A stretch of 64,000 bases of DNA, from NCBI RefSeq assembly GCF_053078305.1, contig NZ_CP166879.1. One strand, given 5' to 3'. Positions 1 to 15,000 of this stretch are shown piece after piece. Made by a program: the position numbers. The number at the start of each line of letters is the position of its first letter. The stretch's first letter is position 1.

Positions 1-3000
1 GCCATTCAGTATGGAACACACCTTCTTTATCAATGCGCTTATAAGTATGTGCACCGAAATAGTCACGCTGTGCCTGGATCAGGTTCGCAGGCAGAACAGC
101 GGCACGGTAGCTATCGTAATAGGCAACCGCAGCGGCGAAGGTCGGAACCGGGATACCGTTCTGTACTGCATAAGCAACGACATCACGCAGCGCCTGCTGG
201 TAGTCATCGGCAATTTGCTTGAAGTACGGAGCCAGCAGCAGGTTAGCGATCTGTGGATTTTCGGCATAAGCATCGGTGATTTTCTGCAAGAACTGCGCAC
301 GGATGATGCAGCCAGCACGGAAAATCTTCGCGATTTCGCCGTAGTTCAGATCCCAGTTGTACTCTTCAGACGCCGCACGCAGCTGAGAGAAGCCCTGAGC
401 GTAAGAAACGATTTTGCCCAGATACAGAGCACGACGAACTTTTTCGATGAACTCACCTTTGTCGCCAGCTGGCTGCGCTTGCGGGCCAGAGAGAACTTTA
501 GATGCGGCAACACGCTGCTCTTTCAGAGAAGAGATATAACGAGCAAACACAGACTCGGTAATCAGCGACAGTGGTTCGCCGAGATCCAGCGCGCTCTGGC
601 TGGTCCATTTACCGGTACCTTTGTTTGCTGCTTCATCCAGAATCACATCAACCAGGTAGTTACCGTCTTCATCTTTTTTGGTGAAGATATCTTTGGTGAT
701 GTCGATCAGGTAGCTGCTCAGTTCACCGTTATTCCACTCGGTAAAGGTCTGTGCCAGTTCTTCGTTAGAGAGATTCAGGCCGCCTTTCAGGAGAGAATAG
801 GCTTCAGCAATCAGTTGCATATCACCGTATTCAATACCGTTGTGAACCATCTTCACATAATGGCCTGCGCCATCAGCACCGATATAGGTAACGCACGGTT
901 CGCCATCTTCAGCAACGGCGGCGATTTTGGTCAGGATCGGCGCAACCAGTTCATAGGCTTCTTTCTGGCCACCAGGCATGATGGACGGCCCTTTCAGCGC
1001 CCCCTCTTCACCGCCGGAAACACCGGTACCGATGAAGTTAAAGCCCTCTGCTGAAAGCTCACGATTACGACGAATAGTGTCCTGGAAGAAGGTGTTACCA
1101 CCATCAATGATGATGTCACCTTTATCGAGATATGGTTTGAGGGAATCAATAGCAGCATCCGTGCCTGCACCTGCTTTCACCATTAACAGGATGCGACGAG
1201 GCGTTTCCAGAGATTCAACAAACTCTTTCACCGTATAGTAAGGAACCAGCTTCTTGCCTGGATTTTCGGCAATCACTTCTTCCGTCTTTTCACGGGAACG
1301 GTTGAAAATAGAGACGGTATAACCACGGCTTTCGATGTTGAGCGCAAGGTTGCGCCCCATCACTGCCATACCGACTACGCCGATCTGTTGCTTTGACATT
1401 GTTTACTCCTGTCAGGGGGTGGTCACCGCCGAGTGTGCGGCTTAAATGTGGTATAGATGTTAACTCACTCATAGAGATGGTGAATAGCATTACCTTTGCT
1501 ATACCACACTGAATGTCTCACCTTTTCCGTCATTTAAAACTTATTTATATGAAATTACTGAATTACTTGTTCAGTAACTCAAGGATAAGTTTTGTCTTTT
1601 CTTCCATCAGCGGCACATCACCGCGAGATTCCACATTCAACCGCACCACCGGTTCGGTGTTGGAGGTGCGCAGGTTAAAGCGCCAATCGGCAAAGGTCAT
1701 GCTGATGCCATCGGTGCGATCCACCGCCAGCGCCTCACGGCTAAAATGCTGTTCCACGCGGTTAATCGCCTCAACGGGTTGCGCCAGTTTGCTGTTGATC
1801 TCACCGCTTGCCGGAAACGCCGCCATCCGGTCGCGCACCAGTTCGCCCAGCGTTTTTCCTTTCAGGCACACCAGTTCGGCTACCAGCAGCCACGGGATCA
1901 TGCCGCTGTCGCAGTAAGCGAAATCACGGAAGTAATGGTGGGCGCTCATTTCGCCACCGTAGATGGCGTCCTCCTTGCGCATACGTTCTTTAATAAAGGC
2001 GTGTCCGGTTTTCGACATTACCGGGGTGCCGCCTGCGGCAGTCACCACATCAACGGTGTTCCAGGAGAGACGTGGATCGTGGATGATCTTCGCGCCGGGA
2101 TTTTTTTCGAGGAATGCTTCTGCCAGCAGACCGACAATGTAGTAGCCCTCGATAAACTGCCCTTTTTCGTCAAACAGGAAACAGCGGTCAAAATCGCCAT
2201 CAAAGGCAATGCCCATATCCGCGCCGTGTTTGATGACCGCATTACGGGTGTCGTCGCGGCATTCTGGCAGTAGCGGGTTAGGAATACCGTTGGGGAAATT
2301 GCCGTCCGGCGTGTTGTGCACTTTGATTAATTCCACGGGTGCGCCGAGGGCTTTAAAGCGGGCTTCAATGGCGTCCACTACCGGCCCCGCTGCGCCGTTC
2401 CCGGAGTTAATCACCAGCTTGAGCGGCGTGAGGTTTTTGACGTTGATATAACCGAACAGGTGATCAACGTAAGCGTCACGCAGATTGATTTGCTGATAGC
2501 GACCGCGTTTGGTTTCATCGACGGGAGGAAAGTCGTTGGCTTCTGCCAGGCGCTGGACATCGCGCAGTCCGGTATCACCGCTGATCGGGCGAGCCCCTTC
2601 GCGCACGAGTTTCATGCCGTTGTAATCCATCGGGTTATGGCTGGCGGTAACTTCGATGCCGCCATCCACGCCGAGATGGAACGTGGCGAAATAGATCTCT
2701 TCGGTGCCGGACATGCCAATATCCAGCACATCGACGCCCGCATCCTGTAAACCTTTCGCCAGCGCCAGTTTTAAGGTTTCGCTGGTGAGGCGGACATCAC
2801 CGCCTAACACAATGGTTTTCGGTTTGAGAAATTCGCCATAGGCGCGACCAATGCGCCACGCAATATCTTCATTCAGTTCTTCGCCTAATTTCCCGCGAAT
2901 ATCATAGGCTTTAAAGCAGGTTAATTTTTTCATATAAAAACCTTACCAATAATAAAATTATTTATGCGCAAACAATTGCATTAGTTTTGAGATTTTTCTG

Positions 3001-12000: not shown

Positions 12001-15000
12001 TAAGGTATTAACAAAAATGCTAGTACCCCTAGCATAAATGAACATACATAAACACTCCATCTGGCCCCATTAATCATTTCAATCATTGCTAATAATAAAG
12101 CAAGAGGCAAATAAATTATTGAAATAAATGAAGCACTAATTTTTATGTTTCTATTAATCATCTTTTTATAACTTTTCTCATAAATAGGTAAATATCTGCT
12201 AACGCCGCATATAATTTCCCGTTTCTTTTCTTTCGGATTTGTCTCGCTTCCTCCAATGCTAATTTTACATTTTTAGCGCTAAGGCCGGCATTTCTCATCG
12301 AAGAGATATTTTTATCAATATAATGAAAGATATAACCTTGTTTCTTCAATTTTAGCAAAAGATCATAATCAGAAGCAATTTTATAGCTAGTATTAAATAA
12401 ATTTTCTCTGTGGATATCTTTTTTAATAAATGTGGCCGGATGGCTTAAATTCATATCTATATGTAGTTTCCAGTCTTTAGGCCTCCGGACCTGAATAACA
12501 TCCAAGCTATCAGCCTCTACCAAAGACATATTTCCATAAATAACATCATATTTATTTTCTTTCATTACTTTTATTACTTGACATAATACATCTTTATTAT
12601 AAAAATCATCAGCGTTTATAAATCCTATATAATTCCCAGATGCTTTTAACACACCTTTATTCATTGCATCATATATACCATTATCATTTTCAGAAATGAT
12701 ATATGAAATTTCATTTTTGTAAGAATTAACAATATTTAGAGTATTATCCGTTGATGCACCATCAATTATAATATATTCAATGTCATCATTGCAGTTTTGT
12801 GATAAGACACTTTTTATAGTATCTTCGATATACATTTCGCCATTGTACACAACGGTAACTATTGTTAAAGTTGGTTTATTCATTGTTAGCCCTACAATAA
12901 ATTTAAATTATTTAATTTATTTGTTTTCTTAATCAAAAAGTAAAATCTCGCCATTATTATAAACTCAGTTGAAATAACTCCTATTGCTGTACCAACTCCT
13001 GAGTATTCATTAGTCAAATAAGTAATTATCAGTAGGCCTATTAATCCACTGGTAGTAATAATTTTTGTAAACTCTTTTTTCATACCAATAGGGATCATTA
13101 CTAAAATTGCAATATAATTACTTACCGTAACTATTGCTGGAGTAAAAGCTAAAACCTTGAGTATTTCTAAAGATTCATGATACGTTTTTCCATACATGAT
13201 TAAAATTATATCGTCTGCAAAAAAGTAAAGAAATATGGAAAGTACGAACATCAGTGAAAATTGCCATCGAAACACTTTCCTGGCTAATAATAGTCCATCG
13301 TCATGATTATCCTTCATTATATAAGTTACTCTAGGAAAAACAGCTTGGGTTATAGGACCAATAACGCCTTGTAGTGCAAGCCTAATTTTATCTGCAGCGA
13401 TAAAATATCCCACTGCAGTTGTTCCTGATAATGCACCTAATATTATTGTTGAACTAGTAGTATAAAGGCTTATTGCTGCAGAGGAAATGAAGTAATGCCA
13501 TCCATCATAAATTAACTCTTTCATTTTGGATAAGGATGGTGGTACCCATATTATTTTTTTAAGAGAAAATAAAAAATATGTAGATATTATACCTGCAATA
13601 ACTGTTATTGATGATTGTATTGTTATCGCTATACCAAGATCCTTTTCACTTTTAACCAATAAAAATGTTAAACATAGTGTAAGTAAGCGTGCGGAAAACA
13701 TACTTATCGCTATTCCTAACATTTTTTCCAGCCCTTGAAAAAACCATACTGGATATATTAAATTTCCTACGACAGATATGTATGCAAGAATGATAAATTT
13801 AATTTGGTAATCAATGATATTCAATTCCGAAATTAAATAAATAATTAACAAACCAAGAGATGCAGCAATTATTTTGATAAACGTTACATTCCAAAAAACT
13901 TTACTTATGGAATCAGTATTTTCCCTTGATATTGATATTATTTTGGGCGCTGAGTAGTTAAATCCGTAATCAATAAATAATATAAAATATTGGACCACAG
14001 CAAAACTATACCCATATATCCCGTATCCTGTAGGTTCAAGGATCCTGACAAGATAAGGCAGTGTGACCAATGGAAATATATAATTGCCACCTTGAACGCT
14101 TAATAAATAGATGATGTTTTTTAACATAACGAGCCTACGTACTTAACAAGTCTTATTTTGCACGATAGTTTACAATTTGTTAAGTAATATGGGATAAACA
14201 TTTAATTCACGCTACCGCCCCTGGCTCAACAGCTACCAGCGTACTGCATGCACGTCCTAATTGTAACTAGCATTAACCGTTATGGTTAGTTCGAAAAGCT
14301 TAACTCTGAACGTTTTACCAAATCGCTTCAGAGATGGAGAAAATCTCAGCCTCCCACAATAAATGCCTATTGAAAAGTTATTGTTACTCATATTTAGAAC
14401 GGTATAAAGAAAGAATGAGGCAATGAGTACAATTAGCCCCACCAATCTTCACTGCCGTTATAATTTTCTTATCAACCGTTACATCCGGTCAGATTTTCAA
14501 TATTCGCTTAACAGCTTCTCAATACCTTTACGGAACTTCGCCCCTTCTTTGAGGTTGCGTAGTCCATACTTCACGAACGCTTGCATATAGCCCATTTTTT
14601 TACCGCAGTCGTAGCTGTCACCAGTCATCAGCATTGCATCAACAGATTGTTTTTTCGCCAGCTCAGCGATGGCATCTGTCAGCTGAATACGTCCCCATGC
14701 CCCTGGCTGCGTGCGTTCAAGTTCCGGCCAAATATCGGCAGAAAGCACATAACGACCTACGGCCATGATGTCTGAGTCCAGCGTTTGTGGCTGATCCGGT
14801 TTTTCGATGAATTCAACAATGCGGCTGACTTTGCCTTCACGGTCCAGCGGTTCTTTGGTCTGAATGACGGAGTATTCAGAGAGGTCACCCGGCATACGCT
14901 TTGCCAGCACCTGGCTACGGCCCGTTTCATTGAAGCGCGCAATCATGGCAGCAAGGTTGTAGCGCAGCGGGTCGGCGCTGGCGTCGTCGATCACTACGTC

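Follow-up and report, generated by a model that had tools for sequence, protein, structure and literature searches.

Gene content and layout of the locus

The DNA that we analysed (the window) is a 64,000-nucleotide stretch of contig NZ_CP166879.1 (assembly GCF_053078305.1). Between galF and the manB-gnd pair, 11 closely spaced genes, all intact and on the minus strand, follow one another from the galF side in the order wzx, GT2, wzy, GT4, GalE-family epimerase, GT4, gmd, fcl, gmm, manC, GT2; with manB included, all 12 genes are intact. The gaps between the cluster genes measure −4 to 83 bp and thus leave no space for further genes; since all ORFs are accounted for, there is likewise no space for the wzm/wzt genes of an ABC transporter. 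The GC content of 2934-14245 is 0.329, as compared with ∼51-55% in the flanks (manB, 0.546; gnd part, 0.507; galF, 0.513; 14246-40000, 0.519). The ORF list, the GC content and the Pfam/NCBIfam families all bear out an earlier, sequence-only reading, which had placed a low-GC O-antigen cluster at 2934-14245 and named the same gene families. One detail needs correction: manB (1563-2933) was counted within this range, but it ends one base before 2934 and is not low in GC.

The boundaries are formed by conserved genes, both on the minus strand. Upstream lies galF (14497-15393; RefSeq annotation of the collinear gene), and downstream the 5′ part of gnd (1-1399), which runs off the window start, is free of in-frame internal stops and is collinear with gndA of FORC 064 and PCN033. 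The galF-wzx intergenic region contains a 39 bp JUMPStart element on the minus strand (14208-14246; Rfam RF01707, 57.0 bits, gathering score 35), 100% identical to the PCN033 copy, with the ops motif GGCGGTAG inside it at 14212-14219, upstream of the first gene. JUMPStart/ops is the signal for RfaH-dependent antitermination of the operon. A scan for promoter and terminator consensus sequences returned fewer sites than in shuffled sequence.

The wzx and wzy genes, each encoding 411 aa, are minus-strand ORFs at exactly the coordinates that the sequence-only reading had given: 12892-14127 for the O-unit flippase (PF01943, 193.9 bits) and 10926-12161 for the polymerase (PF14897 EpsG, 49.1 bits). 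Both proteins have about 9-10 hydrophobic segments, and wzy has the lowest GC content of the cluster (26%). The presence of a Wzx flippase and a Wzy polymerase, without a wzm/wzt ABC transporter, assigns the locus to the Wzx/Wzy pathway.

Four glycosyltransferase genes, all on the minus strand, accompany them. The 241 aa GT2 at 12158-12883 (PF00535, 101 bits) has WcaE as its top NCBIfam match, under the cutoff of that family; its 3′ end overlaps the wzy start by 4 bp, and the protein shows 0 aa differences from FORC 064. The GT4-type enzyme at 9857-10924 (355 aa; PF00534, 92.1 bits; PF13692, 77.6 bits) is identical in FORC 064 and has 6 aa differences from PCN033. The second GT4 (7744-8751) comprises 335 aa (PF00534, 102 bits; PF13439, 59 bits), and the GT2 at 2958-3704 (PF00535, 101.8 bits) is identical in FORC 064; its start at 3704 follows RefSeq, whereas the longest ORF begins at TTG 3716.

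The remaining genes, again on the minus strand, concern sugar nucleotides. The GDP-L-fucose pathway that had been predicted earlier is present in full: manB (1563-2933), a CpsG-type phosphomannomutase of 456 aa (NF011943, 1053.7 bits, cutoff 801; GC 54.6%); manC (3788-5173), a mannose-1-phosphate guanylyltransferase/mannose-6-phosphate isomerase (TIGR01479, 740.5 bits, cutoff 373) with 0 aa differences from FORC 064 and PCN033; gmd (6612-7733), a GDP-mannose 4,6-dehydratase of 373 aa (PF16363, 518.7 bits); and fcl (5643-6608), a GDP-L-fucose synthase of 321 aa (PF01370 (Epimerase), 219.9 bits) that is identical to the FORC 064 protein annotated as fcl by RefSeq. All four are full-length and score above curated cutoffs where these exist. 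The manC start at 5173 is that of RefSeq; the longest ORF begins at GTG 5188. Between manC and fcl lies gmm (5185-5640), a NUDIX-type GDP-mannose mannosyl hydrolase of 151 aa (PF00293, 62.1 bits; RefSeq annotation of the identical protein). Neither the ORF list nor the Pfam/NCBIfam searches revealed aminotransferase, colitose or perosamine genes among the cluster ORFs, in agreement with the earlier statement on the latter two.

Two epimerase genes deserve attention. The first, at 8820-9836, encodes a 338 aa GalE-family UDP-hexose 4-epimerase (TIGR01179, 427.7 bits, cutoff 262.3); among solved structures, its best match is human GALE (1HZJ/1EK6, E = 1e-126), with E. coli GalE ranking behind it. 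In the window protein, Cys299 aligns with Cys307 of human GALE, while the same position is Tyr299 in E. coli GalE. Published mutagenesis of GALE is the ground for inferring the substrate range of a Cys299 enzyme; on this basis, a Gne-type activity on UDP-Glc/Gal as well as UDP-GlcNAc/GalNAc is predicted. The second, gnu (15636-16631, minus strand; PF01370, 107.6 bits), needs adding to the earlier reading: it is located upstream of galF and is functionally part of the cluster. It shows 98.8-99.3% nucleotide identity to copies that RefSeq annotates as Und-PP-GlcNAc 4-epimerase, and its role is taken from Liu et al. 2020 (PMC7685785).

Comparison with serogroup O11

The 11.3 kb stretch matches 65 of 5426 complete E. 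coli genomes (PCN033, FORC 064 and 63 more) at 99.7-99.8% identity and 100% coverage, in a single piece without indels. RefSeq labels the wzx and wzy products of these 65 genomes 'O11 family' flippase and polymerase. The gene content and order between galF and gnd match the O11 cluster, and the RefSeq annotation is collinear: the O11 clusters of PCN033 and FORC 064 have the same 11 genes plus manB, the same order, the same galF-gnd location and the same JUMPStart, and differ from the window by scattered point differences only (17-32 over 11.3 kb). With PCN033, we counted 32 differences in 11312 nt; with FORC 064, 0-4 nt and 0-2 aa differences per gene.

The serogroup-specific evidence comes from wzx, wzy and all four transferases, which are 99.3-100% identical to O11 genomes at the nucleotide level over their full length. 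Specifically, wzx is 99.68% identical to FORC 064 and 99.76% to PCN033, its protein being 100% identical to PCN033 Wzx; wzy is 99.76% identical to FORC 064 and 99.51% to PCN033, and the window's Wzy differs from these two by 2-3 residues, with private substitutions (I169, F187). Both genes lie above the identity of at least about 97-98% that each must reach for O11 membership. The exact Wzx protein is found on at least 1000 public contigs as 'O11 family O-antigen flippase', and the exact Wzy protein on 16 as 'O11 family O-antigen polymerase'. Neither protein had a match in an NCBIfam HMM search, so that the O11 typing is based on nucleotide and protein identity; evidently, the 'O11 family' names in RefSeq are not built on these HMMs either.

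PCN033 links these comparisons to serology. This strain was typed serologically as O11, and its authors found its cluster to correspond to that of the O11 strain G1207, GenBank HQ388393 (PMC4578781); our tie to this type-strain sequence runs via PCN033. The O11 cluster and structure were described by Li et al. (2011; GenBank HQ388393), whose title presents Salmonella enterica O16 as a close relative of E. coli O11 in both structure and genetics.

Collectively, the low-GC stretch at 2934-14245 is very probably the E. coli serogroup O11 O-antigen gene cluster, with a standard Wzx/Wzy-dependent pathway; no feature of the sequence speaks against this assignment. The sequence-only reading had left the serogroup unassigned, but regarded the locus as routine should wzx and wzy exceed 97% identity to a characterised serogroup; they reached 99.5-99.8% against O11 genomes, among them that of PCN033, whose O type was determined by serology. 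As judged from sequence, this is a known and ordinary cluster with the in silico call O11/OX19. Its significance is that of routine typing information, and no new biology follows.

Flanking genes and the colanic-acid cluster

The surroundings of the cluster are far more diverged than the cluster itself. Compared with FORC 064 and PCN033, galF shows 95.3-95.4% nucleotide identity (41-42 differences in 894 nt) and the gnd part 95.4-95.8%; SNPs make up about 0.2% of the positions in the cluster vs about 1.8-4.6% of those in gnd, manB, galF and wcaM. Since gnd, manB, galF and the colanic-acid genes of the window differ by 2-5% from those of the compared O11 genomes, its chromosomal background is distinct from theirs. 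A near-invariant low-GC block within flanks diverged by 2-5% is what textbooks describe for O-antigen loci that recombine between lineages, and the cluster was very probably acquired horizontally as a block; it is nearly invariant across unrelated E. coli backgrounds. The window is from E. coli or from an Escherichia very closely related to it. An origin in Shigella or Salmonella was considered and rejected; at 95-98.5% identity to E. coli genomes, the flanks give no pointer away from Escherichia.

The same window contains, at about 16789-39617, the colanic-acid (wca/cps) cluster, which likewise includes gmd-fcl-gmm-manC-manB and has its own JUMPStart. Unlike the O-antigen cluster, it has normal GC content. 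Its cpsG (23934-25265) is 97.1% identical to the O-antigen manB at the nucleotide level, whereas for gmd, fcl and manC the identity to the O-antigen copies falls to 68-71% (gmd, 71%). The two systems also differ in that colanic acid is initiated by WcaJ and exported by Wza/Wzb/Wzc, and that its cluster yields an exopolysaccharide resembling a capsule, not the O antigen of LPS. The colanic-acid copies of cpsG (manB) and gmd are frameshifted in the window, at about 24995 and about 29928, respectively, which points either to a degree of gene decay in this genome or to errors in its sequence.

Alternative readings

That the strain displays a variant of O11, OX19-like or otherwise modified, and possibly draws all of its GDP-fucose from the O-antigen gmd and manB is unlikely. 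The private Wzy substitutions (I169, F187) together with transferase changes, or a modification gene elsewhere, might cause such a variant; the possible reliance on the O-antigen gmd and manB is considered because the colanic-acid copies are frameshifted. If true, this reliance would couple colanic-acid synthesis to the O-antigen operon.

Slightly less probable still, the strain could be serologically OX19 rather than O11, the same cluster giving another epitope through a few amino acid changes or through a modification encoded outside, such as O-acetylation or glucosylation. DebRoy et al. 2016 (PMC4732683) put the identity of the OX19 and O11 clusters at 98-99.9%, although, according to them, strains of the two groups show no serological cross-reaction. 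By this identity the OX19 cluster should be essentially the gene set of the window, and the cluster sequence alone cannot tell O11 from OX19. The 2-3 Wzy residues that differ from FORC 064 and PCN033, and the six residues by which the first GT4 differs from PCN033, speak for OX19; against it, the window's Wzx protein matches at every residue that of PCN033, an O11 strain by serology, and O11 was far commoner than OX19 in one reference collection (527 vs 28 cultures; PMC4732683).

An equally small probability attaches to a rough strain, in which the cluster is present and O antigen is missing owing to faulty regulation or to a lesion in another part of the genome (wecA, waaL, rfaH). Some serogroup type strains are indeed rough despite complete clusters (Liu et al. 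2020, PMC7685785), and the two frameshifted colanic-acid genes could be read in the same direction; however, the 12 genes are intact, lack indels relative to expressed O11 clusters, and are preceded by the same JUMPStart as in PCN033. A new or rare serogroup with nothing but its GDP-fucose genes in common with known clusters found no support and is practically excluded by the 99.3-100% full-length nucleotide identity of wzx, wzy and the four transferases to O11 genomes and by the presence of the exact Wzx and Wzy proteins in public data under O11 names.

Proposed assembly of the O unit

For the O11 cluster, the gene set suggests the following pathway, the steps of which draw on established knowledge of the protein families. 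RfaH acting at ops would keep transcription going along the whole of the long low-GC operon. GDP-L-fucose would be made from mannose-6-phosphate by ManB, ManC, Gmd and Fcl, with Gmm trimming the GDP-mannose pool, and the Cys299 GalE-family epimerase would supply UDP-Gal and probably UDP-GalNAc. WecA, whose gene lies elsewhere, would load GlcNAc-1-P onto undecaprenyl phosphate, and Gnu probably turns the WecA product into Und-PP-GalNAc. Four further sugars, including one or more L-fucose residues, would then be attached by the two GT2 and two GT4 enzymes, completing a pentasaccharide O unit. It is a reasonable inference from the genes that the unit consists of an initial HexNAc and four transferase-added sugars including fucose; both the sugar count and the transferase roles derive from them. 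Wzx would flip the unit to the periplasmic face, where Wzy would polymerise it. Chain length would be set by Wzz, and WaaL would ligate the chain to lipid A-core; the genes for both lie outside the window, and in FORC 064 wzzB is located beyond gnd-ugd.

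Serogroup assignment of the O-antigen cluster

Judged by its sequence, the low-GC O-antigen cluster between galF and manB-gnd (2934-14245, minus strand) is an intact and already known one, the E. coli O11 O-antigen gene cluster. In a megablast comparison with 5426 complete E. coli genomes, 65 carried 80% or more of 2934-14245; the best matches showed 100% coverage and 99.8% identity in a single gap-free piece, and RefSeq names in the matching genomes were 'O11 family O-antigen flippase' and 'O11 family O-antigen polymerase'. Relative to E. coli FORC 064, wzx (12892-14127) differed at 4 of 1236 nt (1 aa), wzy (10926-12161) at 3 of 1236 nt (2 aa) and the remaining cluster genes at 0-2 nt each. 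E. coli PCN033 is O11 by serology, and its cluster was reported to match the one in O11 strain G1207, GenBank HQ388393 (PMC4578781). The cluster differs from that of PCN033 at 32 of 11312 nt (99.72% identity), with wzx 99.76% identical at the nucleotide and 100% at the protein level, and wzy 99.51% identical in nucleotides. Among public contigs, at least 1000 encode a protein identical to this Wzx and 16 one identical to this Wzy, O11-named in both cases. Li et al. (2011; FEMS Immunol Med Microbiol 61:258) published the O11 structure and gene cluster, with the related Salmonella enterica O16.

The sequence-only reading had left the serogroup open, holding that over 97% identity of wzx and wzy to a well-characterized serogroup would make the cluster routine. 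Both genes exceed this identity to O11 genomes, PCN033 included, and the finding is therefore routine. Because OX19 and O11 clusters are 98-99.9% identical without serological cross-reaction (DebRoy et al., 2016; PMC4732683), the sequence types as O11/OX19; O11 is far commoner, with 527 versus 28 cultures in one collection (PMC4732683).

Differences from FORC 064 and PCN033 amounted to ∼0.15-0.3% in the cluster, versus 1.8-4.7% in gnd, manB, galF and wcaM, and the colanic-acid region (∼16789-39617), the second polysaccharide cluster, reached a top identity of 98.5% among complete genomes. This pattern is the usual one for an O-antigen block exchanged horizontally in a hypervariable chromosomal neighbourhood. 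GalF has 298 aa compared with 297 in FORC 064 and PCN033, owing to one extra codon (14497-14499): their stop codon is replaced by Tyr, followed by TGA.

Gene content and proposed O-unit synthesis

All cluster genes lie on the minus strand with intergenic gaps of -4 to 83 bp (ORF list), in the order JUMPStart, wzx, GT2, wzy, GT4, galE-like, GT4, gmd, fcl, gmm, manC, GT2, manB, gnd. The ORF list reproduced the coordinates first read for wzx and wzy exactly, and the low GC was borne out (0.329 over 2934-14245, wzy being lowest at 0.26), much below that of manB (0.546), galF (0.513) and the colanic-acid region (0.519). Pfam and NCBIfam matches confirmed every family originally named: Wzx (PF01943, 193.9 bits), Wzy (PF14897/EpsG, 49.1 bits), two GT2 proteins (PF00535, 101 and 101.8 bits), two GT4-type proteins (PF00534, 92.1 and 102 bits), a GalE-family epimerase (TIGR01179, 427.7 bits versus a cutoff of 262.3), Gmd (PF16363, 518.7 bits), Fcl (Epimerase family), Gmm (NUDIX), ManC (TIGR01479, 740.5 bits) and ManB (NF011943, 1053.7 bits). 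The manB gene (1563-2933) is present as first read, but is high-GC and lies one base outside the range first assigned to the cluster. According to ORFs and families, the cluster contains no aminotransferase, perosamine or colitose genes, nor room for any, in agreement with the sequence-only reading as regards perosamine and colitose.

At the other end, position 14245, first taken as the cluster boundary, falls inside a 39 bp JUMPStart element in the galF-wzx spacer (14208-14246, minus strand; Rfam RF01707, 57.0 bits versus a gathering score of 35), which includes the ops motif GGCGGTAG at 14212-14219. A second JUMPstart (39795-39833, minus strand; 57.3 bits, above the Rfam gathering score) lies upstream of wza.

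The following steps combine the gene identities found here with established pathway knowledge. RfaH at ops would allow read-through of the operon, and ManB, ManC, Gmd and Fcl would yield GDP-L-fucose. Human GALE (E=1e-126) resembles the cluster epimerase more closely than E. coli GalE does; Cys299 of the cluster enzyme aligns with human Cys307, the equivalent E. coli GalE residue being Tyr299, and 1LRK, the E. coli Y299C mutant, outranks wild-type E. coli GalE in the search. According to published mutagenesis, a small gatekeeper residue at this position admits N-acetylated substrates. From Cys299, such a small gatekeeper, we infer that the epimerase supplies UDP-Gal and UDP-GalNAc. To this GalE-family member, correctly recognized before, a further epimerase gene is to be added upstream of galF: gnu (15636-16631, minus strand, between wcaM and galF), encoding Und-PP-GlcNAc 4-epimerase (older names gne, Z3206). 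By the rule linking gnu at this position with GalNAc as first sugar (Liu et al., 2020; PMC7685785), the first sugar would be GalNAc, derived from Und-PP-GlcNAc formed by WecA. Four transferases imply an O unit of five sugars, which would be flipped by Wzx and then polymerized by Wzy.

Repeats, frameshifts and prophage

The O11 verdict is unchanged by three further features: manB/cpsG repeats, colanic-acid frameshifts and a Mu-like prophage. The O-antigen manB (1601-2933) and colanic-acid cpsG (23934-25265) form direct repeats with 97.1% identity, ∼22 kb apart and both on the minus strand; the remaining duplicated GDP-fucose genes share only 68-71% identity. In O14 strains, the O-antigen deletion reportedly arose when such copies of manB recombined (PMC7685785).

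Two colanic-acid genes, cpsG (23896-25266) and gmd (29567-30687), each carry one frame-shifting 1-bp deletion (CC to C on the plus strand), at ∼24995 and ∼29928 respectively; in a 40 kb alignment with FORC 064 these are the only two coding-sequence indels. None of the 5426 complete E. coli genomes shares either deletion, the best match (98.8%) differing by the gap alone. They are either sequencing errors or marks of real pseudogenes; in the latter case the O-antigen gmd and manB, both intact, could make up for the loss.

The Mu-like prophage (∼40897 to the window end at 64000), encoding a Mu transposase, a DUF935 portal-like protein, a head protease and others, interrupts the TerC-family gene yegH at ∼40897, after ∼205 of 527 codons. 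Prophages inserted at different sites in O157:H7 and other E. coli share 95-97.5% identity with it. Two more RNA motifs scored above the Rfam gathering score: an algC motif directly upstream of colanic-acid cpsG (25270-25319, minus strand; 77.3 bits) and a REP-derived naRNA4 between wzxC and wcaK (20811-20881, plus strand; 79.7 bits).
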